From a virus (taxonomy: Duplodnaviria > Heunggongvirae > Uroviricota > Caudoviricetes): a DNA stretch of 64,000 nucleotides. The translations under genes were made by a program, and so were the position numbers. The stretch lies in the IMG/VR virus record IMGVR_UViG_3300014720_000027, positions 16,466-80,465 of that record; one strand, given 5' to 3'. The first letter of the stretch is position 1. Every line of letters begins with the position of its first letter. The notes beneath the pieces were generated by a model. It searched no databases. It was given only the letters and a program-made list of their open reading frames with translations, and was not told where the DNA came from. This document shows positions 7,466-25,656 of the stretch, one piece after another.

Positions 7466-8198
7466 TTAAACCAGATAACTTGCCAGTTTCTATATCTTTT
7501 AGCACTTTTTCAAGCTTCTTCCAAGTGTCGCGTTTTGACTTGAGAGAGCTTGATTTGCTGCTACACTTTATTCTAACAACATGAAGCCCCTTTGACAAGA
7601 GCAATCCATTTTTTATTGTGTCTTGTTTGATTGTTTTTTGAAGCTTTTCTTCACCAAAAATAGGAAGAAAATGCAGAGGCCCATCAATTTCAATGGCGAC
7701 CTTTTGATCTTTTAAAAACATGTCAACTTTGTATTCGCCGCCGATATTGTCCTTATATATAGTAACGTTGTATCCTTTAGAAAGCAACATCTTGCGAATA
7801 TATTTTTCAATATCAGATCCTTCTACGGACACTTTGCGTAAAGCTTCAGCCGCTTTTCTCTGGCGTTCATGAACTTCGTTTTCAGACAAAGAATCCCATC
7901 TTTCTTTAGCCCCGGCGCGAAATTCCTCCTTTTCTGCTTTAGACATTTTAGCCCAAGCCCTAGAGCGTTTCTCAGAAATATTCTCTTTGGCGGAATCACT
8001 CATATGCTTACCCTTGGTGGGGTGTGTGCTTCTACCTTTAGACAATGCTAGAGATTGAGCCTCGCTTTTATTTCTAATATCAACGCCGTGTTTTTTTAAA
8101 ATTCTATAAATTTTAACAGCATAAGTTGAAAATTCTTCGGCTATTTCCGGAACACTTTTTCCAGATTCATACGCTTTAATTACTTTAAATTCATCCAC
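7455..8198 (-). CDS. HTH domain + Vsr/DUF559-like endonuclease (putative free-standing homing endonuclease)
   Basis: N-terminal helix-turn-helix (SGKSVPEIAEEFSTYAVKIYRILKK). C-terminal VAIEIDGPLHF motif typical of DUF559/Vsr-like restriction-endonuclease-fold domains. Confidence 0.5.
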   Translation of the reverse strand: MDEFKVIKAYESGKSVPEIAEEFSTYAVKIYRILKKHGVDIRNKSEAQSLALSKGRSTHPTKGKHMSDSAKENISEKRSRAWAKMSKAEKEEFRAGAKERWDSLSENEVHERQRKAAEALRKVSVEGSDIEKYIRKMLLSKGYNVTIYKDNIGGEYKVDMFLKDQKVAIEIDGPLHFLPIFGEEKLQKTIKQDTIKNGLLLSKGLHVVRIKCSSKSSSLKSKRDTWKKLEKVLKDIETGKLSGLIEV

Positions 8199-8646
8199 TG
8201 GTAATCTCCTGTATTGTCTTAGAGTCCCAATCTTTTAGAATATGTTTTGGTTTTATATTGCAATAATTTTTAATAGCATCTGAATGATCCAAGCTCCGAG
8301 CCACTAATGTAAGATGCGGGTCTCTTAGGATTAGCATATTTTCATCAAAATCAGATTTATATCTTAGCCACTCTAAATCCGATAAGTATAAATATTTTTT
8401 AGCAGAACTATTAATTTTTTTTAAGGTATTAGCTGTTTGTAGACTTGTGGCAAAAATATGACCATCCCAGAACGGTAAATAATAGGCGTTTACTATAGCA
8501 AAATTCATATTAATAGGGGATGGGGCCATATCGTGATAAAAACAACAGATAGAATTTTCGTTACTACACAATTTATTAAATTCTTTAATCATGCAGTATG
8601 AATTTTGAGACATGGAGATGTTGTCAACAAAAGACGCTAATTTCAT
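8191..8646 (-). CDS. Hypothetical protein (151 aa), first gene of the glycan island
   Basis: ORF overlapping the upstream gene by 8 nt. No motif recognised. Confidence 0.35.
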   Translation of the reverse strand: MKLASFVDNISMSQNSYCMIKEFNKLCSNENSICCFYHDMAPSPINMNFAIVNAYYLPFWDGHIFATSLQTANTLKKINSSAKKYLYLSDLEWLRYKSDFDENMLILRDPHLTLVARSLDHSDAIKNYCNIKPKHILKDWDSKTIQEITSG

Positions 8647-9462
8647 TTAATTTCCTCTTACTTTATTTATTATAAATTTAGCCGCAGCAGCCGGGCTTAA
8701 ATTTGTTTCCCAAAATTGTCTAGATCTATTTGATAATTGCTGCAAGGTTGGCGAATTGACTAGTCTCTGAATATATTTTTCTACTGATTGAATATTCCAG
8801 CTTGGTATTTGTACATGCGGACTACCTTGCATAAATTCGTAATTATTTTGTCTAATTGATAATACTACGCATCCACAAGACATCGCTTCATAAAATCTAA
8901 ACGTATCTAAACTGGCAGAACCACATGGAACAAGGGCTATTTTTGTTTCGCTCATTACTTCAGAGTATGCTTCGGGCCCAAGTCCTTTATTCCAGCCCTC
9001 GTAAAAATGAATCAGGCCCCCTTTTAATGCGGAGGCACAATGATAGAAATCATACCTAGTATACGGATCGTATTGTCCTATAAATGAAAAATCGTATTTG
9101 CGATCATTAATAGGCTTTGCAAATGTTCCAGTGAACCAACTTGTTGTTCCTAGTTGTAACTCAAATAGTCCGGGCGTTTGTACAAAACTATTAGAATCAA
9201 AAAAATATGGAAATGTTGGATTCTTTTTTGTTAAATAATTCATGAATACTGTCATATTTTTTAATTCTGGCGGAAAGTAAGAGTGGCCTTCTGCCGATAA
9301 AATCAAGCATATGCCATATTCTGTTTCTAAATTAAATACAGGCTGATTATGTCTTCTTATGTATAACCCCCAGTCATCATTAAATTCTTCTTTTAAATAA
9401 GAATAAATTTCATATATATGAGCAGATTCGCATATTCCCGATGATTGATTATAAATTTTCAT
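8647..9462 (-). CDS. Putative GT-B glycosyltransferase (CgeB/GT1-like C-terminal motif)
   Basis: FYEAMSCGCVVLS resembles the E-A-M-A-C-G signature of GT-B (GT1/GT4) donor-binding domains. Confidence 0.45.
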   Translation of the reverse strand: MKIYNQSSGICESAHIYEIYSYLKEEFNDDWGLYIRRHNQPVFNLETEYGICLILSAEGHSYFPPELKNMTVFMNYLTKKNPTFPYFFDSNSFVQTPGLFELQLGTTSWFTGTFAKPINDRKYDFSFIGQYDPYTRYDFYHCASALKGGLIHFYEGWNKGLGPEAYSEVMSETKIALVPCGSASLDTFRFYEAMSCGCVVLSIRQNNYEFMQGSPHVQIPSWNIQSVEKYIQRLVNSPTLQQLSNRSRQFWETNLSPAAAAKFIINKVRGN

Positions 9463-10210
9463 TGAAGTATTCTATTCTCCATCTTCTTCCTCCTGCAAAA
9501 TGTCTAATTGTAGTATCTTCTAATCTAGTTGGTATCATGTAAAATTTGTCTTCGCCATCTTCTTGTGGTATATGTGTCACATTCCATGTTGTAGGCATTA
9601 TTTCAACATGTTTATACAACTCTTGTAAGCTATATACTGTGTCTTCATTATATCCTGAATGCCAGCCCCAGTTTTTCATTAATAAAAATGGTATCCAGCT
9701 ATGTCTTTGAATTCCAGCCAAACTATACCATGAAGCTTGCTCTCTAAAAATTTGCCAAAAAGAACTTTGCTCATTCATTGAGCCTATTGTTATTTTATCT
9801 TTTAATTTTTGGTATCTATCTTCTGATAGAATATTTTTTAATAAATTAATAGACCATTCATTTACACGTATTGTATACATACCCATACAATGAGTATTAC
9901 ATGAATCAATGGCATATGCAAAACTTTTAGATGTTTCTAAAGAAACAGAATCATCTTTTATAGCCATATCAGCATCTAGGTGAGTAACTATATCTCCGTC
10001 CTTAAAAGAATTTGACATTTGCAAAATATTATAAAATTTATTCCATGTTGGTACGCCTCTAAAACCTTGGCCTATGTCATTATGATTAAGTTCTATATAT
10101 TCAAAATTATGTTTGAGACAATAATTTTTATTATGCTTTCTTGTATATGTTTCATAAAAATCTTGTCGCCAATCATTGTATGATGCTATAACTACTAAAT
10201 ATTTATTCAT
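9449..10210 (-). CDS. Putative GT-A glycosyltransferase with DxD-like motif
   Basis: VTHLDADMAI DxD-like motif. Size and composition are typical of small GT-A transferases. Confidence 0.4.
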   Translation of the reverse strand: MNKYLVVIASYNDWRQDFYETYTRKHNKNYCLKHNFEYIELNHNDIGQGFRGVPTWNKFYNILQMSNSFKDGDIVTHLDADMAIKDDSVSLETSKSFAYAIDSCNTHCMGMYTIRVNEWSINLLKNILSEDRYQKLKDKITIGSMNEQSSFWQIFREQASWYSLAGIQRHSWIPFLLMKNWGWHSGYNEDTVYSLQELYKHVEIMPTTWNVTHIPQEDGEDKFYMIPTRLEDTTIRHFAGGRRWRIEYFNENL

Positions 10211-11189
10211 TTTTTTTCTTCAATATATTTTTATAAAAATCTATAACTTCTTGAACAACATCATCAACACATTTGGTAGCCTTCCATCCTAACAATATTT
10301 CTATTTTATCAGAATTAGGTATTTTTTCCGGGGCTTCAGAAAACAATAGGCCATGTAATTTTATTGGATCGATATGAATAATTTTTGAATTACTTCCAGT
10401 TAATTCTTTTACTTTTTTTGCAAGATACAAAATGGTTTGTTCATTAATTTTATTTCCTATATTCCATTCTTGATTCCAATTGTCTGGTGACGCAATAGAA
10501 GTTAGATAAATTCCATCAACAATATCTTCAACCCAAGTAAATGCTCTTAATTGCTCCCCAGAATAATAAACTGTTATATCTTTTTCTTCTAAAGCTTGTT
10601 CAACAAATCTTGGTAAAACAAAACCACCATTTGGTAATTGATACTTTCCGGTTACATTAAAAGGTCTAACAATCTGATATTTAAAAGTATCGTCTATTTT
10701 TGCATGGTTGCTCAATACGATTTCTGCTAATAGCTTAGCCATAGCGTATTCGTTTCTTACCGTAAATTCTCCATGTAAAACCTTGTCATCTGACTCTTTT
10801 AAATAACTCTTTTGTTTTCTATATCCATATATTTCTGACGTAGACACAAACACCAAGGGGCATTTATTAAATTTTGCTACATTAATTGCCCAGTAAATAT
10901 CGTCTAAAATAATTCTCGCCATTTTTCCGCTATGTTTTAAAACACCGACTGGGCCAACCGGTGAAGCCAAATGTAATATTAGATCAAATTCTGGAAGATC
11001 ATTCCAATTTACATCCAATATATCTTTTAGTATTATATTTGTATCTTTAACTATTTCATGATTTGAATCAACTGCGTTGGATGAAAGATTATCAATAATC
11101 CATATGTTATATCCTTGTTTTCTCCATTTTTGTACACAGTGTATTCCTATAAATCCAAGTCCTCCAGTAATTAGTACATTTTTATTCAT
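10203..11189 (-). CDS. NAD-dependent epimerase/dehydratase (SDR; UDP-glucuronate decarboxylase / dTDP-glucose dehydratase-like)
   Basis: N-terminal Rossmann VLITGGLGFIGIH, catalytic STSEIYG and YAMAK (YxxxK) motifs. Confidence 0.65.
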   Translation of the reverse strand: MNKNVLITGGLGFIGIHCVQKWRKQGYNIWIIDNLSSNAVDSNHEIVKDTNIILKDILDVNWNDLPEFDLILHLASPVGPVGVLKHSGKMARIILDDIYWAINVAKFNKCPLVFVSTSEIYGYRKQKSYLKESDDKVLHGEFTVRNEYAMAKLLAEIVLSNHAKIDDTFKYQIVRPFNVTGKYQLPNGGFVLPRFVEQALEEKDITVYYSGEQLRAFTWVEDIVDGIYLTSIASPDNWNQEWNIGNKINEQTILYLAKKVKELTGSNSKIIHIDPIKLHGLLFSEAPEKIPNSDKIEILLGWKATKCVDDVVQEVIDFYKNILKKKNE

Positions 11190-11362: not shown

Positions 11363-12124
11363 CTATTGTAAAACATGGGTATAATCATAAAACAAACGAT
11401 ACTCTGGGCCATTTTTAAATTTAAAATGATGTGTTCTAGATGGTCCTTGATTTGGCCTCGTTTCAAATTCTAAGCCTATTACTGATTTTTTCCACGGCAT
11501 CCATGAGTTTTGTATATCTAATCTTTCTGCGCCAAGATCATACTTATCATATATTTCATCTGGCAACAATTTAATTATAGCATTGTTATAAGAAAAAGTA
11601 TTCCATTTTTGTTTAAAAAACAAGCCTGATTTTGAACCATATAGTGCATCCTGTGGTTGTAATTTAGTTTTCCAATGATAATCGTATTGCGCTTCACACG
11701 ATTCATAATAAGCTAAATCTGCCATTCTTAGACGAAATACAAAATCATCATCTTCCCACCCGCCGCCATAAAATCTTTCGTCCCAAAACCCTATAGTTCT
11801 TAATAGTTGTTTAGAAAAACCCATAAATCCAACGCTATATTGTGTCGCTGCGGCAAACCCATTTTCTAGGCACCAAAGAATTTTCTTTACTTCATTTGGT
11901 TTTGGATGGGTTCTATCATTAATTAAGATAACAAATTCTGTTTTAGACGAATTAACTGAATCATTAATCAACTCAGAGAATGAATCATACCATTCTCGTC
12001 TATCTATTCTATTGTTCCAATAAATATTAAATTCATTTTCTAATGGCTTTAATGCTTCTATTTGAGCATTGACTATGTTTCTATCGCACCCACAGTGTAG
12101 ACATATTGTAAATTCTTCTATCAT
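11363..12124 (-). CDS. GT-A glycosyltransferase with GGGWEDDDF motif (beta-1,4-galactosyltransferase/GT7- or GT2-like)
   Basis: FYGGGWEDDDFVFR matches the WGGEDDD signature of beta-4-GalT-like GT-A enzymes. Confidence 0.55.
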   Translation of the reverse strand: MIEEFTICLHCGCDRNIVNAQIEALKPLENEFNIYWNNRIDRREWYDSFSELINDSVNSSKTEFVILINDRTHPKPNEVKKILWCLENGFAAATQYSVGFMGFSKQLLRTIGFWDERFYGGGWEDDDFVFRLRMADLAYYESCEAQYDYHWKTKLQPQDALYGSKSGLFFKQKWNTFSYNNAIIKLLPDEIYDKYDLGAERLDIQNSWMPWKKSVIGLEFETRPNQGPSRTHHFKFKNGPEYRLFYDYTHVLQ

Positions 12125-12125
12125 A

Positions 12126-13016
12126 TTAATTCCAATCTAATATTTCTAAAATTTTTAAGGCCCTTTGTTTCGTTGTTCCGTGCTGTAATAGCCATTCTCT
12201 TTGTTTATATACCATGTCTATATATTCTTGTGTTAGTGTAGTTTTATTATTTGTCAACCTATTGATTATTTTATTTAATTCACCTTCTGAAGAATAACTA
12301 AAACATGGCAAATTTTGTGGTGAACACAGGGGCGGTTTATCGTTATAATCTCTAAATAATAAACAAGCGCCACTGGCCAAAATTTCATAATGTCGCAAAG
12401 AATCCCACCCGCCCTTTTTGCATGTTAATCCAAAACATGATCTAGACATATCATTATAGTATTCTTGTTCATCAGAAAAGCAATATAGCTGTCTAGCGTC
12501 TATTCCCAATATCTGTGGCCCAAATAAAGCATATGGTGGAGCAGTTTTTTGTATTAGTTGTGTTTTATTAAAATTAATATTTATAATTCTATGTTCTGGA
12601 ATACCAAAGCCGGTTGGATACACATTGGCTTTTGCTTCAAATAATTCCCTTTTAAAACAAGGTTCTTTTAGTATTCTTGAATGATCATGCCCGTCTAACC
12701 AAAATGTTTTTTGGGCAAAAGCTTCTAAAGAATCATATCTTGGTACATTATATGCATCAGTAACGCCATATAGCAATACAAAATCATTATCAATTATTCT
12801 ATTTTCTATCTCTGGTAATGGTTCTGTTAATAGGCTAAATCCCCATCCATGTAATTCATTTTTTGGAGATTCGCTAAAATCACCATACATAATTTTTTTT
12901 CTAGGAAAATCTATACATTGATCGCCTAACACTTGTCGCAAACCATGCAACATAGATATTTCTTGATAATCACCTTGCGATTTGGGGTCTGAGGTTGTAA
13001 TATAAATTATTTTCAT
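12126..13016 (-). CDS. Putative glycosyltransferase (GT-B-like C-terminus)
   Basis: HYEILASGACLLFRDY resembles the GT-B E-x-x-A-x-G motif. Confidence 0.4.
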   Translation of the reverse strand: MKIIYITTSDPKSQGDYQEISMLHGLRQVLGDQCIDFPRKKIMYGDFSESPKNELHGWGFSLLTEPLPEIENRIIDNDFVLLYGVTDAYNVPRYDSLEAFAQKTFWLDGHDHSRILKEPCFKRELFEAKANVYPTGFGIPEHRIININFNKTQLIQKTAPPYALFGPQILGIDARQLYCFSDEQEYYNDMSRSCFGLTCKKGGWDSLRHYEILASGACLLFRDYNDKPPLCSPQNLPCFSYSSEGELNKIINRLTNNKTTLTQEYIDMVYKQREWLLQHGTTKQRALKILEILDWN

Positions 13017-13585
13017 ATGTATATATTGATTTCCTGTGGTTTTCTTATTTGTATTACAAAACTAGGACAACCATCTTGAGTTATTTTATTTATTTTTAAA
13101 TTATTTAAAGTACAAAATTCATTAACTGCTGTAAAGACACCCGAAAATAAAACTTCGTGATAATCATGCCCACACATATAACCATTATTTTTAATTTTAT
13201 TAAAACATAATTCAATATCTTGTTTAATACCCTCGTAAGAATGATCACCATCAATATACATAGCATCAAAATAATTATCTTCAAAATTTTTTAAAACATC
13301 TACGCTGCGTCCTTTATGAAGAATAACATTTTTATCAATAGACCATTTTTTTATTTGTTCATATTCATGATCCATATTTGCGTGCTGCATATTATTACCG
13401 TCTTTGTCTCCTGAGCAAGTTGGTCCAGAGAAAATATCGATTAAATGCAACTCTTTAGGTTTAATTGTTTCATAAATAATTTTAGAATATTCCCCTTTAA
13501 AAACACCTATCTCGGCAAAAATTAAGTTGTGATCAAAAAAATTTAATAAATTATTTCTATTGTCTATTATTTCCATATTGATCAT
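13013..13585 (-). CDS. Class I SAM-dependent methyltransferase (TylF/MycF-like O-methyltransferase family)
   Basis: Motif I FAEIGVFKGEYS and a downstream acidic motif (YIDGDHSYEG). Paralogous to the ORF at 58857-59429. Confidence 0.55.
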   Translation of the reverse strand: MINMEIIDNRNNLLNFFDHNLIFAEIGVFKGEYSKIIYETIKPKELHLIDIFSGPTCSGDKDGNNMQHANMDHEYEQIKKWSIDKNVILHKGRSVDVLKNFEDNYFDAMYIDGDHSYEGIKQDIELCFNKIKNNGYMCGHDYHEVLFSGVFTAVNEFCTLNNLKINKITQDGCPSFVIQIRKPQEINIYI

Positions 13586-14321
13586 ATTCCTTCATTTTAT
13601 TTATTTTGTCTATATAGTTACCCGGACCACCGGGAAAATGCATTAAAGTTTTTTTAGTTATATGGTCATGTGATATAAGAGCATTAAAACTATTATTTAT
13701 AACATTATTGCGATATAAAACTACATTTCCATACGGCTGCTCAATACACGCATTCATTTTATCCAAATTATCCATCATAAATTGTTCTATTTGTTTAAAT
13801 ATTAAAACTGATTTACTAAAAAATCCAAATGCTCCAAAATTAATTGCTTTAACATTGTTTTCTTTTATTTTTTTTAATTCTTCATTAGAAAAAAAATCCT
13901 TACCGTTATAATAACATCCACCCATAGTACCATCTTCATTAGATACATATATATCGTCATGATTAACCATTGTGTTAAAAATATTTGAAATATTATTTGT
14001 CCATATTGTATCTATGTCACAAAAAAATATTTTTTCATAGTTTTTAATTAGTGCCCAATCATATATTTTTAATTTATTGTATGATGATTTTTGTACACTG
14101 GACGTATCAGATATAAAAAAATAAAAATTGTCAATATTTAAATTTAGTTTATCTAAAGTGTTTTTTATTTTTTCAATAAAATTATTGTCTGTTATAAAAA
14201 GAATATTAATATTTAAATCTATGTATTTAGACAAGGATTTTAAGTGCATATTTAATATTTCTATGTATTGTAAATTTCCTCCAATACTATAATAAATTAA
14301 ATTTTTCATATTTTCATTCAT
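13557..14321 (-). CDS. Putative nucleotide-diphospho-sugar transferase
   Basis: FFCDIDTIW DxD-like motif. Very low GC. Confidence 0.35.
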   Translation of the reverse strand: MNENMKNLIYYSIGGNLQYIEILNMHLKSLSKYIDLNINILFITDNNFIEKIKNTLDKLNLNIDNFYFFISDTSSVQKSSYNKLKIYDWALIKNYEKIFFCDIDTIWTNNISNIFNTMVNHDDIYVSNEDGTMGGCYYNGKDFFSNEELKKIKENNVKAINFGAFGFFSKSVLIFKQIEQFMMDNLDKMNACIEQPYGNVVLYRNNVINNSFNALISHDHITKKTLMHFPGGPGNYIDKINKMKEYDQYGNNRQ

Positions 14322-15124
14322 TGTAGCTCTTTTATTATATTGCCAACAATCGCTTGATATAAATATTTATTTTTAAACGCTATGCGACCATTTTGTATTT
14401 TTTCATTTATTTGTTCAAAAGTCATGTTTTTTAATTTTTCTTCAAGCGTGTTGATATTTTTGATATCGCACAATACGCCATAGTTCTCAAAATCTTTGTC
14501 AAAATACGGAATCCAAGGATCGTCGTATATGTATATTGGTATCGATCCGCACATTAATGATTCATAAATTCTAAAAGATGTTTTGCCGTATCCTCTAGGA
14601 CATAAAGAAAAAATACTATCTGTAATTATTTTTAAATATGATTTATAATCATATCTGACATCTGTTATAGCAAATGGAGCCTTTAATACTCTGCTCATTT
14701 CTTCTCTAACAAAATGTCTACCCCAAATAGCTCCCACGAAGCTAGCAAAAAAATTGCGTTTTTCTATTGGTATTATTGGAATACTATTATCATAATAATA
14801 ACTACTAAGAGGTATCGCATAATCACCTATTCCGCCACTAGCAAAAATAAATAAATCTAAATCTTTTATTTTATTTAATATTCCATCGTCCCATTGTATA
14901 ACTGTAAAATATTTTTTAGATCTATCAAGGGAATCTAAATAGTTTTGAAGCTCGGACATATCTTGCTGCCCGTAATCTTTTGATATATAATAATTGGTCC
15001 AATATATTGGTAAATATTCTCTATTTAGTTTTGGTTGAATACTCTCAATATATTTTCCAAAAAATTCTTCAAATATTATAATATTTTGCGGAGGATTTTC
15101 GTGATTGGTTGGCACTTTAAACAT
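14318..15124 (-). CDS. Exostosin-like (GT47-type) glycosyltransferase
   Basis: LCPRGYGKTSFRIYESLMCGSIPIYI closely parallels the exostosin/GT47 C-terminal signature CxPxGDxxxSxRLFEAlxxGCIPVi. Confidence 0.5.
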   Translation of the reverse strand: MFKVPTNHENPPQNIIIFEEFFGKYIESIQPKLNREYLPIYWTNYYISKDYGQQDMSELQNYLDSLDRSKKYFTVIQWDDGILNKIKDLDLFIFASGGIGDYAIPLSSYYYDNSIPIIPIEKRNFFASFVGAIWGRHFVREEMSRVLKAPFAITDVRYDYKSYLKIITDSIFSLCPRGYGKTSFRIYESLMCGSIPIYIYDDPWIPYFDKDFENYGVLCDIKNINTLEEKLKNMTFEQINEKIQNGRIAFKNKYLYQAIVGNIIKELQ

Positions 15125-16001: not shown

Positions 16002-16572
16002 AATGATTTAAAAAATTATCTATATCATTAACCATAGGACACCCTTCGTAAACTTCGTCTCTGTTTACTTCTGCTATGATATATTTAATACTATTTAATG
16101 TATTAATAGAACCTTTTAATACTTTTAATTCATACCCCTGAACATCTATTGACAATAAGTTATACTCGTTTATATTTATATTATTTTCTAATACAACATT
16201 GTCTAATCTTTTTATTTTGCATTTTTCTATTGTTCCATCAAATATTACATTTGGATGTTCTGTTAAATGAATCTTTGGCTTTAAAAAAGAACTAGATGCC
16301 CCAGACCCATTTTGTATCCCCCCGTCAGTTTTAGAAATATAAAGATCTAACTCTCCTTCTTCATCTCCAAGGGCAAAATTATAAGCTTGTTCTGTTGGTA
16401 AAAGTTGATACTTGAACATATGATATAAATGTTCTTGTGGTTCAAACAGTATTGTATTTTTTAATCCTATCTCTCTATATTGTTTTATTTCTTCTCCTCG
16501 AAATGCTCCTATGTGAATTATTCCGGCTATATTTCCAAAAATATCAATTATATTTTTTAAGTCAAATATCAT
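15931..16572 (-). CDS. FkbM-family methyltransferase
   Basis: IDVQGYELKVLKGS matches the FkbM motif. N-terminal GAFRGEE is SAM-motif-I-like. The annotated start overlaps the downstream gene, so the true start may be an internal Met. Confidence 0.5.
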   Translation of the reverse strand: MIFDLKNIIDIFGNIAGIIHIGAFRGEEIKQYREIGLKNTILFEPQEHLYHMFKYQLLPTEQAYNFALGDEEGELDLYISKTDGGIQNGSGASSSFLKPKIHLTEHPNVIFDGTIEKCKIKRLDNVVLENNININEYNLLSIDVQGYELKVLKGSINTLNSIKYIIAEVNRDEVYEGCPMVNDIDNFLNHFGFKNFYTYWQSKSWGDALYVKQ

Positions 16573-18336: not shown

Positions 18337-19372
18337 AATATTTATTCCATAAAGAAAGTATAGAACTAGACTCTTTCTCGTAGCCAAACCTATTTAAAAA
18401 TTGCGCTATTCTGTGATAATTAGTGTGCTCTGATAAAACTATTTTTTGTCCTTGTTTGGCTATTTTTTCAGCTTCGTCATAATTATTTAAATAATAGTTA
18501 ACATGATCCTGAAAATCTTGTTCATTATCAGCAAACACCATGCCATCTTTAAAGATTCTTTTGTGAGACGCGACATTATCACCAACACAAAATCCACCGG
18601 CTGCCAATACTTTAAAACTTCTTTCGTTTACTTCTATCCCGTATTCATGAGCGTGCGGCTCGCTTAAATTAGGACAAATTCTTGCTGATCTAAAAAGATT
18701 CTTTACTTTCTCTTCTTTAATATGTCCACAATACTGATTTACCCCAGTCCATCCTTGATTACCAAATATTTTTATTTTGTATTTATTTACAGGATAACAT
18801 AATGGCAAAAGATATTTATTGATTATTTGTCCTTTATAAGGCCAATAGCCGCCAACAAATCCAATGTCACACTCTAAAGCCGGGTCATATTCTGGATTTA
18901 AATAAGAATGAATATCAGCGCACAAAAGAATACCAACCGCTGGAATGTTTAACTTATTAACAAAATGCGAATGCGTTTGATTAACCGATTCCTGTTCGTA
19001 ATGAATATAAATAAACTCTGGCTGGCCTGTTTCATTTTTTAAATCTTCTAATAGCTTAATTTCTTTTTGAGTGGTTTGCAGGATATTAAATCTTGGATCT
19101 GTGTGAAAATCAGACCAATCTCCAGCTCTTAAAGCTACTTTTAAATGCGGTCTATTTTTAATACATTTGATTGTAGCTTTATCTAGGTTGTATAGTTGAC
19201 CAATAAATATATCGGGTTGAAACTCATCGAATATTCTAAAGGTTGGGGTTTTTGTATCATATATTTGAGCTTCTATAAAATTAATACTATTAAAAGCGTT
19301 TAACCAAGACATTCTTTCAAAATAGTGAGCGTGATAACCGTCATTAGCAATCAATATTTTTAATTTCTTCAT
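18317..19372 (-). CDS. Putative glycosyltransferase (CgeB/DUF3880-like)
   Basis: C-terminal KVLAAGGFCVGDN ... NYYLNNYDEAEKIAKQG resembles the CgeB-family GT C-terminus. Confidence 0.4.
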   Translation of the reverse strand: MKKLKILIANDGYHAHYFERMSWLNAFNSINFIEAQIYDTKTPTFRIFDEFQPDIFIGQLYNLDKATIKCIKNRPHLKVALRAGDWSDFHTDPRFNILQTTQKEIKLLEDLKNETGQPEFIYIHYEQESVNQTHSHFVNKLNIPAVGILLCADIHSYLNPEYDPALECDIGFVGGYWPYKGQIINKYLLPLCYPVNKYKIKIFGNQGWTGVNQYCGHIKEEKVKNLFRSARICPNLSEPHAHEYGIEVNERSFKVLAAGGFCVGDNVASHKRIFKDGMVFADNEQDFQDHVNYYLNNYDEAEKIAKQGQKIVLSEHTNYHRIAQFLNRFGYEKESSSILSLWNKYYAENFN

Positions 19373-20012
19373 TTTTTAAATCCTTGATTGAATCTATTTC
19401 TACTATACGCATGTTTTCTGGCTCATAACAATGAAAAATGCCGCCCATATTGATAACCTTGTTTATAATTTCAAAAATAAAAAGTTTATCAGTATTATAA
19501 TGTATTATTTCTTTTAAAAATTGTAATTCTACGCCCGTAAAATACGCTATTTGACACCATTTTTGTTTTAAGCCATAAGATAAATTTGTAGCAATATTAT
19601 TATCTGAAACTATTCCAACTTCTTTGTCGGCAATTCTCTGCTTATTGTCCACTATTAAAAATGACTTCTTTTTATTGACGTTTAAGGCATCGTAATTAAA
19701 CAGAAGATCTCCGTGAATAATAAGTAAACCGGCTGATGAAAATTTCAATGCTATTTTTACACCATATGCGGTGCCATTATCTAAAAAGTTTTTATTTTCA
19801 ATAACGCATATCTTTTCTTTATCAAATTTTTTTTGTATTTTACTAAATTTATAACCGCCGACAATAGTTATGTCTTTTCCAAATAATTTTGAAACTATGC
19901 TTACCTGATTGTCTATTATGGTTTTTTCGCCAATTTGAATCAGGCATCTTGGTTCGTAAGATTTCATTCTGGCTGATATGCCAGCGGCAAGTATTATTGT
20001 TTGATTCTTCAT
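19344..20012 (-). CDS. Sugar nucleotidyltransferase (MobA-like NTP-transferase fold)
   Basis: N-terminal IILAAGISARMKS matches the GxGxR nucleotide-binding motif of sugar-phosphate nucleotidyltransferases. Confidence 0.5.
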   Translation of the reverse strand: MKNQTIILAAGISARMKSYEPRCLIQIGEKTIIDNQVSIVSKLFGKDITIVGGYKFSKIQKKFDKEKICVIENKNFLDNGTAYGVKIALKFSSAGLLIIHGDLLFNYDALNVNKKKSFLIVDNKQRIADKEVGIVSDNNIATNLSYGLKQKWCQIAYFTGVELQFLKEIIHYNTDKLFIFEIINKVINMGGIFHCYEPENMRIVEIDSIKDLKNEEIKNIDC

Positions 20013-20758
20013 AATCTTTGTTGTAGTATTTTAGCGTTTTGATTAAAAATTTCAGGAGTCATTTTTAATGATTGGTTTCTTCCCGTTGTTCTGACTAAAG
20101 ATAAAGATTGGGGCACATGTTTCATGAGGCAAACTTTAGATAATCTCAGCCATAAATCATAATCTTCAGTGCAACCAATAAAACCTTTGCTTAGCGGCCC
20201 ATGTAATCTTGGATCGTATACGTCTTTATTTTCTAGTAATACCTGTTGTAAAATAGATTTACGAATAAGAGCCCCCGAATGAACAATACATCTTTTTAAC
20301 AGTGTTGATGAACTATACGGTTCTTTAAATTCTCTTTTTATATACCCATCTTCCAAAATATCGTAGTCGGCATAAGCTACGCCAACATTAGGATCAGACA
20401 TTTCTTTAAGTAGAAGCTCTACTTTGTTTGGATAATATATATCGTCGGCATCAAGAATAGCAAAAAAATCTGATTGATCCCAAAGATTTTTAATCAATGT
20501 ATTTCTAGCGGCGGAAGCCCCTTGATTTTCTGTATTAATGTAAGTAAAATTAGTGTTATAAACAATTCCGGGCTTATAGAGCGTGGCCTGTGATAATGAT
20601 GCGATATATTGCATGATATTATCATGCGAATTATCTGTAGATCCATCATTGATAACACCAACATGACAATGAATAGTTTGACTCATTGCGCTTTTAAAAG
20701 CATCTACAACCATATCTCCATAGTTATAATTTGCAATGATAATAGATACTTTATCCAC
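20009..20758 (-). CDS. Family 2 glycosyltransferase
   Basis: SIIIANYNYGDMVVDAFKSAMSQT and LDADD are classic GT2 motifs. Confidence 0.65.
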   Translation of the reverse strand: MDKVSIIIANYNYGDMVVDAFKSAMSQTIHCHVGVINDGSTDNSHDNIMQYIASLSQATLYKPGIVYNTNFTYINTENQGASAARNTLIKNLWDQSDFFAILDADDIYYPNKVELLLKEMSDPNVGVAYADYDILEDGYIKREFKEPYSSSTLLKRCIVHSGALIRKSILQQVLLENKDVYDPRLHGPLSKGFIGCTEDYDLWLRLSKVCLMKHVPQSLSLVRTTGRNQSLKMTPEIFNQNAKILQQRL

Positions 20759-21554
20759 TAAACATATCCTCCCAAGAAACCAAACAATTTGGATCTTCTG
20801 ATTTTAACTCAGATACTCGTTCTAGAAAATTTTTGCTATCAATGCTTCCATCAGAATTTATTTTTGGAGAATTTCCGCCAAGCAGTTTATACAAAGCCGC
20901 CTGAATAATAAAGCTTTTATCGGTTTTCTTTTCGCAATAAACAAATCGTTTTAATTCTATATTTATTCTGTTATGAATTTTTTCTGTAAAATTTTCTGGT
21001 ATATTACAACCACTATCTAAGAATACAATCCATCCGTTCTTACAAAAAGCAAGAGCATCATCTATAGAATCATATATGTAGTCTAGATTACTGGGTGGCA
21101 TTAAAATATTGTACTGTATTATTTTTTCGTTTTTATACAAATTTTCTAATATACTGAAAAGCTCCATATTGTATTCTGCTTTGTCATTTATTACAATCAA
21201 AAATTTTCTAGAGCTTGTTTGATTATTTATAGAATCGACAAGACTCTTAAAAAAATCCATATCGTAGTTAAATTTTACAATAAAAGAAAGTCTAGGTTTA
21301 ACTTCCTCCATCACCTCCTCTTTAGCTTTAGTTAAATTGTTGTTACAATATTGATCCATCCAATCTGCCGGGCGACGAGTATTGCAAAACCTATTAAATA
21401 TAGCGTGTGAGACATTTTCCACTTCTTCAAAATTTTCATCTGGATTTAAAATATGCAGCCTGTTTAAAGAGCATCCATATTGAATATCTTTGCCTTTAAA
21501 ACTAGTGTATTCTGCAAACACACAATCTTTACAAGAAAATTTAATATCGCTCAT
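20751..21554 (-). CDS. Putative GT-A glycosyltransferase
   Basis: LSFIVKFNYDMDFFKSLVDSINNQT GT2-like opening. The fold assignment is tentative. Confidence 0.4.
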   Translation of the reverse strand: MSDIKFSCKDCVFAEYTSFKGKDIQYGCSLNRLHILNPDENFEEVENVSHAIFNRFCNTRRPADWMDQYCNNNLTKAKEEVMEEVKPRLSFIVKFNYDMDFFKSLVDSINNQTSSRKFLIVINDKAEYNMELFSILENLYKNEKIIQYNILMPPSNLDYIYDSIDDALAFCKNGWIVFLDSGCNIPENFTEKIHNRINIELKRFVYCEKKTDKSFIIQAALYKLLGGNSPKINSDGSIDSKNFLERVSELKSEDPNCLVSWEDMFSG

Positions 21555-21967
21555 TCTAATATTCCTACTACAATTGATGTAAAGTTTTTAATTTGTTTTT
21601 GGCTAATTTTAAATCCTGCCAACCTTAATTCGTCTATAATAATGTCTGTACTTACAGCGCATTTTACAGAAGAACCGGCTGGATATATAGCCTCATTAAA
21701 ATCTGTTAATGTAATTGCTCCAGTTGAAAGCATATGTGATAATAACTCTATATCAGTAAAGTAGAGTATAATTTTACCGCCTTTTTTTATTTTCGAAGCA
21801 ATCAGCCTAATTACGTCGGGAACTTCCTTAATATTAAAGGAGCACAAAATGTCATCTACGACAATTTCAGAAGCTTCTCCGTTATCTACTATAATATCCA
21901 AAGAAGACAGATTATTTATCCATAATCTATCTTGATCTTCTTGGTTATGACTAAAGACTATTCTCAT
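21551..21967 (-). CDS. Small methyltransferase-like or truncated domain protein
   Basis: KKGGKIILYF and ILCSFNIKEVPDV resemble the post-motif-I to motif-III region of class I MTases. Motif I is lacking. Confidence 0.3.
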   Translation of the reverse strand: MRIVFSHNQEDQDRLWINNLSSLDIIVDNGEASEIVVDDILCSFNIKEVPDVIRLIASKIKKGGKIILYFTDIELLSHMLSTGAITLTDFNEAIYPAGSSVKCAVSTDIIIDELRLAGFKISQKQIKNFTSIVVGILE

Positions 21968-22944
21968 TGATATAAAACTCCTTCAAATACTTGATTCCAG
22001 CTATTTGTAAACTGATTTAAGTTGTAGTTGTTTAGTATTGTTTCTCTTGCATTATTCCCTAATTTTCTAGCATAACTAGGGTCTAATAGTAATTGTTTGC
22101 AATGATCTTGTAGTTCTTGTGGACTATTTGACAAAAGCCCGTTTTCACCATGTTTAATTATTTCTGGAATCATGCAGGTAGCAGTTGAAACTATAGCACA
22201 ACCACACGCCATTGCCTCCATTAAAGACATTGGAACTGGGGAATGCAGCGAAGTATTTAAAAATATACTAGATTTTTGATACGCTTTTTTTAACTCTGTA
22301 ATTGATTCAGCGGCATCAGACAGGCCCGGATTTTTACCTAAAACTTTGACTGGTAGCTGGTTTGGTTCTACAATGCTTCTCCATAAATTCCACCCACAAG
22401 CCCAATCTCTACTAGACCAATAGTTGACCACAGATAGTAGTGTATTTTCTCTATCCTGATTATTTTCATCGCACCAAAAATCAGTATCCATTCCATGATT
22501 TATAAACTTGGAGTTTGACTCATTATATCCCCAGCTTTTTGAATTAAAGTCTGAAATAAATGTGGTCAGATCAACATCTGCCGATTGAAAAGTCTGAAGC
22601 TGTTGCTGTATGTTATAGCGAACATCTGGAAGGACATGGCAGTGTCTAATAATTGGCACTTGACAATATTCTTTGATATCTTGGGCCACTCTAATTCTAT
22701 CATCAGATGTGTGAACTAAAATAAGATCGAATTCTTCATGATAAGGCAATTGATTTATAATTTTATAATTTTCTGGAATAGCCGCATATGCAGTATCCCA
22801 TTCTTTACCACTTTTTAAGCAAAAGAAATTATGCCCGGTTTTTGCTAGATTAGATTCGTATCGTTCATGGGTTGATCCGACAACAATAATATTTAAAGTT
22901 TTACCCCTTGTTGCGCGTCTAACTATAGATTTAACTAAGTCCAT
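21964..22944 (-). CDS. GT4-family (GT-B) glycosyltransferase
   Basis: MSLMEAMACGCAIVST is the GT4 donor-binding signature. Confidence 0.6.
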   Translation of the reverse strand: MDLVKSIVRRATRGKTLNIIVVGSTHERYESNLAKTGHNFFCLKSGKEWDTAYAAIPENYKIINQLPYHEEFDLILVHTSDDRIRVAQDIKEYCQVPIIRHCHVLPDVRYNIQQQLQTFQSADVDLTTFISDFNSKSWGYNESNSKFINHGMDTDFWCDENNQDRENTLLSVVNYWSSRDWACGWNLWRSIVEPNQLPVKVLGKNPGLSDAAESITELKKAYQKSSIFLNTSLHSPVPMSLMEAMACGCAIVSTATCMIPEIIKHGENGLLSNSPQELQDHCKQLLLDPSYARKLGNNARETILNNYNLNQFTNSWNQVFEGVLYQ

Positions 22945-24061
22945 TTAAAACTTCCTTTATTATATTTCCTATAGAGCTATAAGAAAATTTTTGTTTTGTA
23001 CTATTAGATATTTTTTCTTTATTGTCAATTATATTTTGCCTATTTTCATATGTTGATCTCATGGCAATTCTTAAATACTGGACATTGATATTTTGCCAAC
23101 AGTCTGCCGAGCTTTGTATTTCTGGTAGTGCTGACTGCATATTAAAACAGTCATCTAGACTCGACAACACCCCAATAGAATAGTCTTGAGCATATGTGGC
23201 GGTTCCGGTATCATTGGTATAGATCAAGTTCAATCCTAGTGCCTGAGCCTCTACAGCAGGAATACAGCAAGCTTCTCCGTGGCTAGGGCAAACAAAACTA
23301 TGGCACTGGTTCAAAATAGAAACATAGTCGTGATGTTTTAGATGTCCGCATACGGTTGATATATTTTGATATTTTTTTCTTATTTTTAGCCCGGCCTTTA
23401 CAAAATCATTTAATTTATTAAACTCTTCCATGCATTTATCGCTAGACATATTTGAGCTTAATTTGATAAATAGGTTTATTGGTTCGGAAGGATGAAATTC
23501 AGTATAAAATGCTCTTAATAAAGATATCAAATCTTTTCTATTATTCCACTCTCCAACAAAGCAAAAATTAAAAGAATGCTCTAATTCTGATATAGATGCG
23601 GTTTTTGTTGTTGTTGAATATTTTTTAGGATCAAGGCTGTAAGGAATAACACTGATCGGATTGGATACGCCGCTTCTTATTGAAGCTTCTTTGTTTTGAT
23701 CCGACATTACCCATGAAGCATCTAGCATGTTAATATATTTATGCCATTTGCTATAATGAAAGTCAAAAGATTCTGTGCAATAAAATCCTATATTTTTAAT
23801 TTTAGCATTGTAGTAATAATATTTTGGTAGGCAGTGCTGAATACAAAAATCAGATCCTTGGCATGACCCCTCCTCCATTTGCTGAATAGTTTCACTAATT
23901 TCTTTTTGTGTTCCAAAACTAATTGGTCTAGCAACTACGTCTATGCCAACCGATTTCATAGCCAGCATATTTGCTTCTGCGGCAGAGCCCCAGCCGCTAG
24001 CATCTCGATAATTACCTATATATAAAACTTTCATAAATTTTTTACTCTGTGAGACTCCCAA
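22931..24061 (-). CDS. GT-B glycosyltransferase (GT4-like)
   Basis: IPAVEAQALGLNLIYT resembles the E-A-x-A-x-G motif. Size typical of the family. Confidence 0.5.
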   Translation of the reverse strand: MGVSQSKKFMKVLYIGNYRDASGWGSAAEANMLAMKSVGIDVVARPISFGTQKEISETIQQMEEGSCQGSDFCIQHCLPKYYYYNAKIKNIGFYCTESFDFHYSKWHKYINMLDASWVMSDQNKEASIRSGVSNPISVIPYSLDPKKYSTTTKTASISELEHSFNFCFVGEWNNRKDLISLLRAFYTEFHPSEPINLFIKLSSNMSSDKCMEEFNKLNDFVKAGLKIRKKYQNISTVCGHLKHHDYVSILNQCHSFVCPSHGEACCIPAVEAQALGLNLIYTNDTGTATYAQDYSIGVLSSLDDCFNMQSALPEIQSSADCWQNINVQYLRIAMRSTYENRQNIIDNKEKISNSTKQKFSYSSIGNIIKEVLNGLS

Positions 24062-25656
24062 GTATTATAGTATTCTCTTAAAGTTACTATCTGTTTATAT
24101 GCATCTTGATAGCTAAAAGCTTTCATTTTTAAAGTATCTTTGTTATGATTTTCATTTATATAAAAAGAATTTAAATTTTCTACGGTTGCTTTATAAGTCA
24201 GTTCTTTTACTAAACGTCTCCACAAAAATCCTCCAAGCATCTCTGGCTTATATAAAACTTCGGCAATTAAAAAGTTTGCTTGATCTAGTGGCGATTTTAA
24301 GCTTTCATTAATGGGCTTTGGTTTAATAACTTTGCCCGGGGATTTCCAAGACTGTTCCTCTGGAACAATGTCTAAAGATTTGAAAAGCTCTATCCATTTA
24401 GATGCGGTACTATCCCAATTATATTTGGAGAGTGTTTTTATATAAATTGCACGACCCATTTTTGTTAATTCTTCTTTACTTTTTGATGTTAGAGTATGAA
24501 GAAGTTCGACAAAATATGCATTATCTGGAATAGCTCTTTTGCATCCTGTTTCGGGCTCAATTATAAAGCCTTTGGCGGGAATAGGAAAAGCCTCTATATT
24601 TTTTATAACCGAAGACATGGCGGAATAATCAATAGAACAAACAACGTTTCCGCACTGAGCCGCTTCTAACTGCGGCATCCCAAATCCTTCACTATTTGCA
24701 TATTGTACATAAATATCAAAAACATTATAAACTTTTGCCAATTCTGTTTCTGACAATGGATTATTTATACCGCAAATACCGGAAGTGAAATTATTGCATT
24801 TGTTACAAAATTTAACTATATCGCTAAAAAATGAACAATGAATATGTCCGCATTTAGTACATTTGTACGTAAATAAAACTTTATTAGTTAAGTTATGTTC
24901 TATCAATAAAGCCGGTATATCCCATCCTACATCAGGAAATGACGTATGGCAATAAAGATAAACGTCTTCCCTCTTTGATTCATCTAGAAACTTTCTAAAT
25001 GATGCGAATAAATCAGGGTACAATTTACGCCTTTGATTACGCATGACAGTTCCAATAATATAAGGGGCTGCGTCCATTCCAAACGAATTTCTTAGCTGAG
25101 CCTTCTCTTTTATTGGATAAAAATTAAAAGAGGCACAAGGAGATGCAACCCCTTTAAAATTATCAAACAACCCCTGCTTCTTTAGTGTATCTATACCAAA
25201 TTCGGAATAAGTAAAAATAGCATCGGCCCGGCTATATGTGTCAACCCATTCTATATTTTGAGGTTCTGCATCTACCGTTGGCATTAATGCCAATTTATAA
25301 AAATTTCTAAATGGTGAATTCTGCTCAAACGACACCATCCAAAAGTCTCGGATATCGAAAACAAAGTCCGGCTTAAATGCTAGTAGCACAGAGTTAAAAG
25401 AAAATTCACCAAATTCCGCAGTTGGAGATGATTTATATGCTTCAAATTCTGGTGTTCCTATTTTTGGCTTATTGGGAAATATTCTCCACGGAACATTTTT
25501 AATTTTCGGATCTTCTTCTGAGCAATAACAGGCTAGTTCCGCCACTTCAAATTCCGGAATTTTATTTAATCTAGATAAAACTTCCTTTGAGTAAACAGAA
25601 TATCCCGTAGGCAACTGAGAAAACTCAGTTACCATTAGTATTTTTTTCTTACGCAT
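24031..25656 (-). CDS. Large GT-B glycosyltransferase with Cys-cluster insert
   Basis: PQLEAAQCGNVVCS GT-B motif. CTKCGHIHC...CNKCNNFTSGICG Zn-ribbon-like insert. Confidence 0.5.
   Translation of the reverse strand: MRKKKILMVTEFSQLPTGYSVYSKEVLSRLNKIPEFEVAELACYCSEEDPKIKNVPWRIFPNKPKIGTPEFEAYKSSPTAEFGEFSFNSVLLAFKPDFVFDIRDFWMVSFEQNSPFRNFYKLALMPTVDAEPQNIEWVDTYSRADAIFTYSEFGIDTLKKQGLFDNFKGVASPCASFNFYPIKEKAQLRNSFGMDAAPYIIGTVMRNQRRKLYPDLFASFRKFLDESKREDVYLYCHTSFPDVGWDIPALLIEHNLTNKVLFTYKCTKCGHIHCSFFSDIVKFCNKCNNFTSGICGINNPLSETELAKVYNVFDIYVQYANSEGFGMPQLEAAQCGNVVCSIDYSAMSSVIKNIEAFPIPAKGFIIEPETGCKRAIPDNAYFVELLHTLTSKSKEELTKMGRAIYIKTLSKYNWDSTASKWIELFKSLDIVPEEQSWKSPGKVIKPKPINESLKSPLDQANFLIAEVLYKPEMLGGFLWRRLVKELTYKATVENLNSFYINENHNKDTLKMKAFSYQDAYKQIVTLREYYNTWESHRVKNL

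Follow-up and report, generated by a model that had tools for sequence, protein, structure and literature searches.

What does a tailed phage make with a run of 21 genes rich in glycosyltransferases, and onto what is the product placed? The question is raised by a 64,000-nucleotide stretch of a Caudoviricetes genome (the window; positions 16,466 to 80,465 of IMG/VR record IMGVR_UViG_3300014720_000027), in which the listing of open reading frames (ORFs) places 21 consecutive minus-strand ORFs in an unbroken run at 8191-25656. Multi-enzyme glycan clusters are already known from phages, mostly cyanophages, where their function is unproven, and aquatic phage glycan gene sets are usually labelled as modifying host lipopolysaccharide (LPS) without evidence; this locus offers a cleaner test case. 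What is particular here is the single overlapping 21-gene array, its conservation within a lineage, its cassette mosaic and several enzyme families absent from PHROGs. The island is almost certainly a glycan-biosynthesis locus in a phage. We give a probability of roughly 45% to the reading that it would encode a soluble cytoplasmic glycan factory, most likely acting on the phage's own virion proteins before lysis.

The window belongs to a large tailed phage of the DnaE type from an uncultivated lineage. It encodes DnaE, SSB, a primase, DnaB, a RecA/UvsX-like protein, ribonucleotide reductase, PhoH and a sigma factor, together with a dNMP kinase, a dUTPase and a dCMP deaminase; no tRNAs were found in it. 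The best DnaE match among deposited phages has 31% identity, relatives in IMG/VR with DnaE about 50% identical lie on contigs of up to 161 kb, and megablast of the island against the INPHARED phages returned no match. The island lies between the genes for SSB (25686-26012) and DnaE (26022-29456) and a convergent plus-strand block.

Eight of the 14 putative glycosyltransferases are firm, defined by a Pfam match above cut-off or a confident structure, and up to six are weak or recognised by motif only. They are joined by a GDP-L-fucose synthase, a UXS-like decarboxylase, a sugar nucleotidyltransferase and two methyltransferases. With ATG starts, which are those of independent gene calls on identical metagenomic contigs, adjacent island ORFs abut or overlap by 4-29 nt, and the sole gap measures 173 bp (11190-11362). 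A promoter and terminator scan found no convincing internal terminator on the coding strand of the island, no enrichment of promoter-like or terminator-like sites and no internal transcription signals. Given the overlaps and the lack of an internal terminator, the island looks like an operon-like array, a single long, translationally coupled unit continuing from SSB and DnaE; the transcription scan supports a long transcription unit only. An earlier note on this DNA, made from its letters, had described about 19 consecutive minus-strand genes of very low GC content; the run is there with 21 genes, and the island as a whole is not very low (31.2% GC versus 34.6% in the remaining window). Only the central cassette (10203-14321) is clearly lower, at 28.6%, with a minimum of 22.1% in ORF 13557 (ORFs are named by their first coordinate).

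Relatives were reached via DnaE and exact-protein look-ups and compared gene by gene using tblastn, with 10 kb visible on each side. The identical sequence is present in three metagenomes of the Joint Genome Institute (JGI), and related islands lie on L025 (a 158.5-kb contig), L027 (135.7 kb), L044 and L030. The genes of the array, in the order in which they follow SSB, are as follows (lengths in amino acids, aa; SAM, S-adenosylmethionine; SDR, short-chain dehydrogenase/reductase).

24031..25656, minus strand: 541-aa GT-B glycosyltransferase with a GT4-type core and a C-terminal region of ~110-170 aa without assignment (Pfam Glycos_transf_1 30.5 bits, cut-off 26.4; phrog_2170 4e-17).
22931..24061, minus strand: GT4-type glycosyltransferase (Pfam Glycos_transf_1 3.4e-10; phrog_2170 5.7e-21), in all relatives; 367 aa when counted from the likely ATG start (22931-24034), agreeing with the JGI gene call.
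21964..22944, minus strand: GT4-type glycosyltransferase (Pfam Glycos_transf_1 1.3e-19, Glyco_trans_1_4 8e-17), collinear in L025, L027, L009, L010 and L044.
21551..21967, minus strand: 138-aa conserved protein, no assigned function (identity 60% in L025, 32% in L044, 29% in L027).
20751..21554, minus strand: 267-aa protein, Cys-rich at its N-terminus, whose GT2-like domain is weak (Pfam Glycos_transf_2 only 18.4 bits, cut-off 23.3), kept in L025, L027, L009 and L044.
20009..20758, minus strand: GT2 (GT-A) glycosyltransferase (Pfam Glycos_transf_2 3.3e-20), 82% identical in L025.
19344..20012, minus strand: generic sugar-1-phosphate nucleotidylyltransferase (Pfam NTP_transf_3 5.7e-11), a lineage-wide core gene.
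18317..19372, minus strand: CgeB-like GT-B glycosyltransferase (Pfam Glyco_trans_1_2 3e-25), collinear in L025, L027, L009, L044 and L030.
17380..18387, minus strand: GDP-L-fucose synthase (Fcl/GMER), an extended SDR of 318 aa when counted from the likely ATG start (17380-18336).
16569..17402, minus strand: 277-aa putative GT-A-type transferase of a large uncharacterised family, by motif only (invariant DD).
15931..16572, minus strand: FkbM-family SAM methyltransferase (Pfam Methyltransf_21 5.7e-19), collinear in L025, L027 and L044.
15117..16001, minus strand: GT32/GT44-like DXD glycosyltransferase with the motifs IHFIWLG and DTD; 275 aa when counted from the likely ATG start (15117-15944).
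14318..15124, minus strand: soluble short exostosin (GT47)-like GT-B glycosyltransferase, 268 aa (Pfam Exostosin_GT47), the last gene of a conserved 13-gene block.
13557..14321, minus strand: weak GT8-like protein, cassette gene (Pfam Glyco_transf_8 only 22.6 bits, cut-off 24.3; the GC minimum given above).
13013..13585, minus strand: class I SAM methyltransferase, cassette gene (Pfam Methyltransf_24 4.1e-15; GC 26.0%), absent from L025, L027 and L044.
12126..13016, minus strand: GT-B protein with weak CgeB-like similarity, exchangeable cassette gene (Pfam Glyco_trans_1_2 only 20 bits, cut-off 25).
11363..12124, minus strand: GT-A glycosyltransferase with GGGWEDDDF (beta4GalT / GT2-7C-like, by structure model), exchangeable cassette gene, 84% identical in L044.
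10203..11189, minus strand: UXS-like extended SDR, cassette gene (best PDB match human UXS1), with 62% identity in L044 and no counterpart in L025 or L027.
9449..10210, minus strand: 253-aa conserved protein, putative GT-A-type transferase by motif only (DADM); identity 73% in L025, 84% in L044, 65% in L027.
8647..9462, minus strand: weak protein resembling the C-terminal half of GT-B enzymes (Pfam Glyco_trans_1_2 only 21.6 bits, cut-off 25), kept in L025, L044, L027 and L030; the L025 homologue has a weak RXYLT1_C match.
8191..8646, minus strand: 151-aa conserved protein, no assigned function, the last gene of the array; 72% identical in L025, kept in L044, L027 and L030.

The GT2, GT4, CgeB-like, GT32-like and exostosin families named in the earlier note are each borne out by Pfam matches above cut-off, as are its FkbM and class I SAM methyltransferases, and all motifs it quoted (IHFIWLG/DTD, LCPRGYGKTSFRIYESLMCGSIPIYI and GGGWEDDDF) are present. 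ORF 15117 belongs to GT32/Gly_transf_sug, with Pfam matches to TcdA_TcdB (4.1e-12; 46.5 bits, cut-off 23.6) and Gly_transf_sug (PF04488; 6.4e-9; 36.8 bits, cut-off 23) and the DTD motif at residue 146. The 541-aa glycosyltransferase, the first gene after SSB, is the most widely conserved of the locus, with homologues of 38-81% identity at the same position in every relative; it is 23% identical to annotated glycosyltransferases of the Synechococcus phages S-CBS4 and S-EIVl, and a sequence search of the PDB gave no match. ORFs 8191, 9449, 16569 and 21551 matched nothing in Pfam at E<=10, NCBIfam or PHROGs. When ten island proteins were scanned against PHROGs, seven had no match at all and eight had no glycosyltransferase family, so that most lack a recognised counterpart in isolated phages.

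Gene-by-gene comparison divides the island into a conserved block and an exchangeable centre. From 24031 to 14318, all 13 genes keep their order in L025 (59-82% identity) and L027 (29-56%), and the 11 of them that lie inside the fetched L044 locus are collinear there as well (32-62%). A three-gene core, comprising the 541-aa glycosyltransferase, a GT4-type enzyme and the nucleotidyltransferase, is kept where DnaE is only ~50% identical; the distant relatives L014, L019, L021 and L024 have only this core, in an island of ~6 kb (ORF 19344 being present even in the short islands of L014, L019 and L021). The contents of the central cassette differ as follows.

Window: GT8-like gene, Methyltransf_24 gene, ORF 12126, ORF 11363 and UXS-like gene.
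L025: GT10 fucosyltransferase, two FkbM methyltransferases and a GT25-like gene.
L027: FkbM gene, homologues of ORFs 12126 and 11363, formyltransferase, PIG-L deacetylase and two SDRs.

Genes 12126, 11363 and 9449 are 84-86% identical in L044 despite a backbone identity of 32-62%, whereas 12126 and 11363 are missing from L025 despite a backbone that is 59-90% identical; ORF 12126 itself is 86% identical in L044 and 69% in L027. These discordant identities show that the cassette was exchanged between divergent phages. The GT8-like and Methyltransf_24 genes, which have the lowest GC of the island, are without counterpart in the relatives compared, and ORF 13557 had no homologue in any relative fetched or in the INPHARED phages. 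Recent acquisition, which the earlier note had proposed to check by GC and codon usage, thus applies to the central cassette only; for the whole island it was ruled out by the collinearity of the 13-gene block across divergent relatives. The 13-gene core would have been inherited vertically within the lineage, and swapping of the cassette between phages would make the glycan vary in its outer part.

The fucose branch is the best defined part of the predicted pathway. The top eight PDB sequence matches of ORF 17380 are all GDP-fucose synthases (1e-56 to 6e-61, residues 19-326), so that the earlier assignment to GDP-L-fucose synthase holds against a generic SDR. Its best NCBIfam model, GDPFucSynFcl, scores 271.5 bits, below the equivalog cut-off of 500, which marks it as a divergent Fcl member; specificity for an L-fucose product is therefore likely, not guaranteed. 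E. coli Fcl has Ser107, Cys109, Tyr136, Lys140 and His179, that is, the SDR triad together with the Cys and His of epimerisation. The phage protein has the glycine motif G8xxGxxG, Thr107, Cys109, Tyr136, Lys140 and His170; the last lies in GSHDHF, which we take to correspond to GPHDNF of E. coli, with Asn at this position in the 8du0 alignment. Homologues of Fcl were found by tblastn in 77 deposited phage records, 61 of which are Synechococcus or Prochlorococcus phages. In L025 the GT10 fucosyltransferase directly follows the exostosin-like gene, and in phage S-SKS1 the genes for GDP-mannose 4,6-dehydratase (GMD), Fcl, the exostosin-like protein and a fucosyltransferase are grouped together.

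The GMD partner of Fcl is missing from the window, as the earlier note had remarked: a six-frame tblastn search of the 64 kb with a genuine phage GMD as query retrieved only the two SDRs, weakly, and no GMD was present in the fetched parts of L025, L027 and L044. ORF 10203 was considered as a divergent GMD and rejected, its best matches being UXS1 and the gmd model not being among its NCBIfam matches. With human UXS1 as best PDB match (5.6e-29; next family 2e-20), the motifs STSEIYG and YAMAK and an ambiguous NCBIfam result, it is a putative UDP-glucuronate decarboxylase making UDP-xylose. The third sugar-nucleotide gene, ORF 19344, matches NCBIfam and PDB entries weakly and generically (the GlmU N-terminal domain, LicC). 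Both the UXS-like SDR and the sugar nucleotidyltransferase of the earlier note are thus found, and its self-contained pathway is not: the island lacks GMD and a source of GDP-mannose, its nucleotidyltransferase is of a generic type, and nothing in it defines an acceptor.

We next turn to the two proteins whose resemblance to eukaryotic enzymes is most marked. ORF 14318, which contains LCPRGYGKTSFRIYESLMCGSIPIYI, matches Pfam Exostosin_GT47 (PF03016; 1.5e-11, 44.6 bits versus a cut-off of 33.4). A profile of its family found the GT47 domain of human EXT1 at 1.1e-13 and chlorovirus A075L, the founder of GT114, at E=0.009 over ~60 residues. Its AlphaFold2 (AF2) model has a pLDDT (predicted local distance difference test) of 94.3, and Foldseek matched it to EXT1, EXT2 and EXTL3 with E ~1e-10 and query-normalised template modelling (TM) scores of 0.60-0.64, ranking A075L (E ~5e-6, TM 0.39-0.49) after all exostosins. 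Among predicted viral structures, against which this model only was compared, the one strong match was M4QPL1 of S-SKS1 (TM 0.85); giant-virus proteins appeared as weak generic GT-B matches. Residues D79/D80, R140 and R177/R185 are invariant in the family; the catalytic residues of A075L are Asp73 and Arg158/Arg208. The hydropathy scan detected no hydrophobic segment in the protein (maximum KD19 1.13), and hence no type II membrane anchor of the eukaryotic kind. At least 559 homologues exist, all metagenomic, with no or generic names and many on contigs of 80-160 kb; more distant copies lie on bacterial chromosomes, and no relative was confirmed when IMG/VR was scanned with this protein only. 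As a separate observation, two contigs of 106 and 118 kb (L031 and L032) carry related exostosin-like and FkbM genes at 23-26% GC and no polytopic membrane proteins; they are binned as metagenome-assembled genomes of Cellvibrionaceae and Bacteriovoracaceae and may be mis-binned phage contigs.

The AF2 model of ORF 11363 (pLDDT 95.4) has a GT-A fold, for which the top Foldseek matches were E. coli K4 chondroitin polymerase (GT2) and beta4GalT1/7 (E 2e-5 to 1e-4); TM was ~0.45 and identity 13-19% for the bacterial GT2 enzyme and beta4GalT alike. Its Pfam matches are sub-threshold (PF02709 15.2 bits, cut-off 23, E=0.016; PF10111 E ~0.015), and a precomputed PF02709 match was recorded for 7 of 120 listed homologues. 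As to the former beta-4-GalT-like label, the GGGWEDDDF motif is present, the PF02709 score is below threshold and the fold is as close to K4 polymerase as to beta4GalT. For this protein and the exostosin-like one the eukaryotic resemblance is real, yet both are phage or bacterial proteins, soluble and not close to giant-virus enzymes. The description of the families as eukaryote-like holds for the GT47 and beta4GalT similarity and fails for the origin of the homologues, which are metagenomic, many on phage-sized contigs, with bacterial distant ones.

ORF 16569 may represent an undescribed, putative glycosyltransferase family. Its family has 2181 cluster representatives at E<=1e-3 and 847 at 1e-10, with R11, Q14, D86, D87, G117, N119, E197 and N225 invariant. 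One of 55 members scanned had a GT25 match and one a GT2 match, and profiles built from four and then 55 sequences found no match among PDB sequences.

How the product might be assembled depends on what the island lacks. A Kyte-Doolittle scan, a simple hydropathy test, found no membrane helix in the 21 island proteins, the one borderline hydrophobic segment lying in the conserved C-terminal region of a GT4-type enzyme. The same scan found no polytopic membrane proteins within 10 kb in L025, L027, L031, L032 and S-SKS1, and neither the island nor these five phage-type loci contained a priming phosphoglycosyltransferase, flippase, polymerase, ligase or transporter. Where exostosin-like homologues lie on bacterial chromosomes (L038, L039 and L041), the loci do encode proteins with 5-11 transmembrane-like segments. 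With no priming enzyme, flippase, polymerase or exporter, the acceptor would be one reachable in the cytoplasm. In the scheme that we infer, including the acceptor, the order of steps and the identity of sugars other than fucose, Fcl would convert GDP-4-keto-6-deoxymannose, supplied by a GMD of the host or encoded elsewhere in the phage, into GDP-L-fucose, the UXS-like enzyme would convert UDP-glucuronate into UDP-xylose, and the nucleotidyltransferase would activate a third sugar. Between 8 and 14 GT-A and GT-B transferases of inverting and retaining families would then assemble a complex oligo- or polysaccharide, which the FkbM and Methyltransf_24 enzymes would O-methylate. CgeB-type enzymes act in spore-crust glycosylation of Bacillus. 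Virion proteins are the preferred acceptor because the locus is conserved like core genes, lies beside a possible structural block, includes CgeB-type enzymes and has known precedents.

One of the closest known systems is that of S-SKS1 (Llyrvirus), a tailed aquatic phage whose Fcl is 38% and exostosin-like protein 32% identical to those of the window. Further sugar-nucleotide enzymes and a fucosyltransferase cluster there, again with no polytopic membrane proteins nearby; unlike the window, S-SKS1 has its own GMD beside Fcl. Similar 'LPS/cell-wall' clusters occur in the large cyanophages P-SSM2, S-SCSM1 and S-SCSM2R, for the last of which 13 glycosyltransferases and 22 genes related to the cell wall are reported (PMC12801897). 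In these cyanophages the genes are interspersed with other auxiliary genes, whereas the window has a single overlapping 21-gene array, and its phage comes from a different, uncultivated DnaE-type lineage.

Chlorovirus PBCV-1, which builds the N-glycan of Vp54, has a machinery that includes A064R, A111/114R and a virus GMD and GMER. Its soluble cytoplasmic virus-encoded transferases resemble those predicted for the window, and the two systems share a short exostosin-annotated GT-B enzyme (A075L/GT114 in PBCV-1) and a virus-encoded GDP-fucose synthase. The PBCV-1 glycan is fucose-centred, xylose-containing and O-methylated, as is predicted for the window; A075L is a cytosolic exostosin-annotated xylosyltransferase that places xylose onto the fucose of the chlorovirus capsid glycan (PMC11571054). 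On the other hand, the PBCV-1 host is eukaryotic, GMD is present there and absent from the window, and A075L is distant, the phage exostosin-like protein being closer to true GT47 exostosins. The likeness to chloroviruses and mimiviruses over phage O-antigen cassettes that the earlier note had put forward is accordingly half right: O-antigen-modifying components are indeed absent, and giant viruses are not the nearest match.

To our knowledge, mycobacteriophages provide the only experimentally shown virion glycosylation by phage-encoded enzymes in tailed phages; the glycosylation clusters there comprise few genes, compared with 21 in the window. As in the window, the transferases of phages of the Che8/Corndog/Myrna type are phage-encoded with no export machinery, and they act in the cytoplasm on the phages' own capsid and tail-tube proteins (Freeman et al. 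2023, as cited in PMC12619734). These phages show no detectable sequence relationship to the window, the Fcl tblastn search having led to one Mycobacterium phage record only. Bacterial O-antigen and capsule loci share with the island their sugar-nucleotide genes, many transferases of GT2, GT4, GT8 and GT32 type, methyltransferases, and conserved flanks around a variable, low-GC, horizontally exchanged centre. They differ in that the island lacks a priming phosphoglycosyltransferase, Wzx/Wzy, an ABC transporter, a chain-length regulator and a ligase, and lies among phage replication genes and plus-strand, possibly structural, genes.

Several observations weigh against a cytoplasmic factory for virion proteins, and some of them point to the host envelope instead. 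Six of the 14 putative transferases are sub-threshold or motif-only, the scan for transmembrane segments is crude, and without GMD in the window the fucose branch is not autonomous. That the glycan targets the virion is something we infer. The island is also co-oriented and contiguous with SSB and DnaE and not with the plus-strand block, which suggests early or middle expression and would suit enzymes that remodel the host. Such enzymes would act on undecaprenyl-phosphate-linked or lipid A-core intermediates that the host primes, flips and ligates, and the altered O-antigen, capsule or S-layer glycan could block superinfection, prevent adsorption of progeny to debris or change recognition by grazers. 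Glycosyltransferases of O-antigen and capsule loci are themselves soluble or peripheral, so the missing membrane proteins are compatible with use of the host's priming and export. The inventory (GT2, GT4, GT8-like and GT32/Caps_synth-like enzymes, Fcl, UXS and FkbM) is typical of such loci, conserved flanks with a variable centre are the classic architecture of a surface-polysaccharide locus, the bacterial chromosomal homologues lie in loci with polytopic membrane proteins, and both conserved enzymes of GT4 type belong to the PHROGs category 'moron, auxiliary metabolic gene and host takeover'. The cyanophage literature likewise assigns comparable clusters to modification of the host cell surface (PMC12801897). 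Set against this are the lack of any priming transferase, flippase, polymerase, ligase or transporter in the island and its five phage-type relatives, and a 13-gene block that is kept like core genes where replication proteins are ~50% identical, unlike a dispensable moron; moreover, the window ORFs scanned contained no integrase or lysogeny module, which makes classical lysogenic seroconversion unlikely. On balance, we regard envelope remodelling as the main alternative, though one that is rather unlikely to be the answer.

Two further explanations concern other acceptors. T4 alpha/beta-glucosyltransferases and 5mYOX/ThyS-linked phage transferases glycosylate phage DNA, in chains of up to a few sugars. 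At least the core next to SSB and DnaE could similarly glycosylate hydroxymethylated bases and thereby evade restriction: its genes are directly downstream of and co-oriented with DnaE and SSB, and the window encodes the dNMP kinase, dUTPase and dCMP deaminase. DNA-modifying phage transferases have GT-A or GT-B folds and often lie beside replication genes, but their pathways usually cluster with a base-modifying enzyme (bioRxiv 10.1101/2023.12.21.572611), and a Pfam scan that covered the window except for some ORFs below 190 aa, most of them below 140 aa, revealed no thymidylate-synthase-type hydroxymethylase, 5mYOX/TET dioxygenase or C5-cytosine methyltransferase. Both GT4-type proteins fall in the generic phrog_2170, no similarity to T4 beta-GT being seen, although no search was aimed at it, and up to 14 transferases together with O-methyltransferases, Fcl and UXS go far beyond what such short sugar chains on DNA need, so that we consider hypermodification of DNA highly improbable. 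Mycobacterial methylmannose polysaccharides are soluble and polymethylated, and the island might make a comparable free intracellular or secreted glycan, or a small-molecule glycoside, serving as decoy or metabolic modulator. All enzymes are soluble, the methyltransferases adjoin transferases, and a methylmannose-polysaccharide mannosyltransferase is among the distant GT-B fold matches of the exostosin-like model. That fold match is generic (E ~1e-4, TM 0.4), however, the diversity of transferase families favours a heteroglycan over a homopolymer, and we know of no phage precedent; a free glycan therefore receives very little credence.

If virions are decorated, as the preferred reading holds, complex virus-encoded capsid glycosylation, which has so far been demonstrated in giant algal viruses and in a few mycobacteriophages, would also be a trait of abundant environmental phages. 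It would then matter for how specifically these phages adsorb, how stable their particles are and whether grazers recognise them. A broader proposal, which we put forward tentatively and with some doubt, is that a widespread, uncultivated aquatic phage lineage with genomes of 135-160 kb glycosylates its own virions with a large O-methylated fucose/xylose heteroglycan, built wholly in the cytoplasm by some twelve phage enzymes and diversified in its outer part by cassettes into 'serotypes'. Such a system would be the bacteriophage counterpart of chlorovirus capsid glycosylation, and at least one transferase family not yet characterised, that of ORF 16569, would take part in it. Should the host envelope be modified instead, the locus would be an unusually large yet conventional auxiliary gene cluster. 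In either case the soluble GT47-like protein with its at least 559 homologues, the family of 16569-17402 with its 2181 clusters and that of 9449-10210 are candidates for enzyme discovery.

Downstream of the island lie a Vsr/DUF559-like endonuclease, two conserved small genes and the plus-strand block, which encodes proteins of 866 aa, 696 aa (Cys-rich), 124 aa (Cys-rich, DUF6171) and 303 aa. In L030 the same block is preceded by genes for proteins of 1714, 490, 809, 262 and 830 aa. Apart from DUF6171, none of these proteins, in the window or preceding the block in L030, had a family match; the block is possibly a tail or structural module.

The 303-aa protein (5294-6205, plus strand) is rich in Gly, Ser, Thr and Asn, and over 400 homologues occur in metagenomes from fresh water and the sea. 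It is much better conserved than the proteins around it, reaching 90% identity in L025 compared with 59-82% for the transferases, and its gene is followed by the strongest terminator of the region (6232-6259, 12-bp stem). Although it had no PHROG, Pfam, INPHARED or PDB-profile match, it is probably an abundant virion protein and hence a candidate glycan acceptor. The Cys-rich pair consists of the 696-aa protein (2791-4881, 31 Cys) and the 124-aa DUF6171 protein (4874-5248, 16 Cys, 12.9%), and the equivalent block of L044 encodes a 165-aa Erv1/ALR sulfhydryl oxidase (PF04777; L044:18303-18800). Together these suggest phage-driven disulfide formation in the cytoplasm, a trait known from nucleocytoplasmic large DNA viruses. 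The Cys-rich proteins might also be among the glycosylated virion proteins, as the earlier note had proposed.

The Vsr/DUF559-like endonuclease (7455-8198, minus strand) has an N-terminal helix-turn-helix region and marks the distal edge of the island, where it is conserved in relatives; L030 has an additional GIY-YIG endonuclease nearby (L030:12841-13659). Such edge endonucleases might promote cassette exchange. A second small putative glycan cluster (55284..59429, minus strand) comprises a GT4-type transferase (55284-56321; Glyco_trans_1_4 3.7e-15, phrog_2170), three ORFs without a family match and a Methyltransf_24 gene (58857-59429; 1.7e-21), and coincides with a local GC dip to 29%. Beside it, the 671-aa ORF at 53267-55282 (minus strand) combines weak similarity to anaerobic ribonucleotide reductase with intein splicing and LAGLIDADG homing-endonuclease domains. 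In L006, L007 and L017 the DnaE homologue lies in two segments ~7 kb apart (~10001-11887 and ~18711-20440), and the polymerase gene of these relatives appears either split or broken up by other genes inserted into it.

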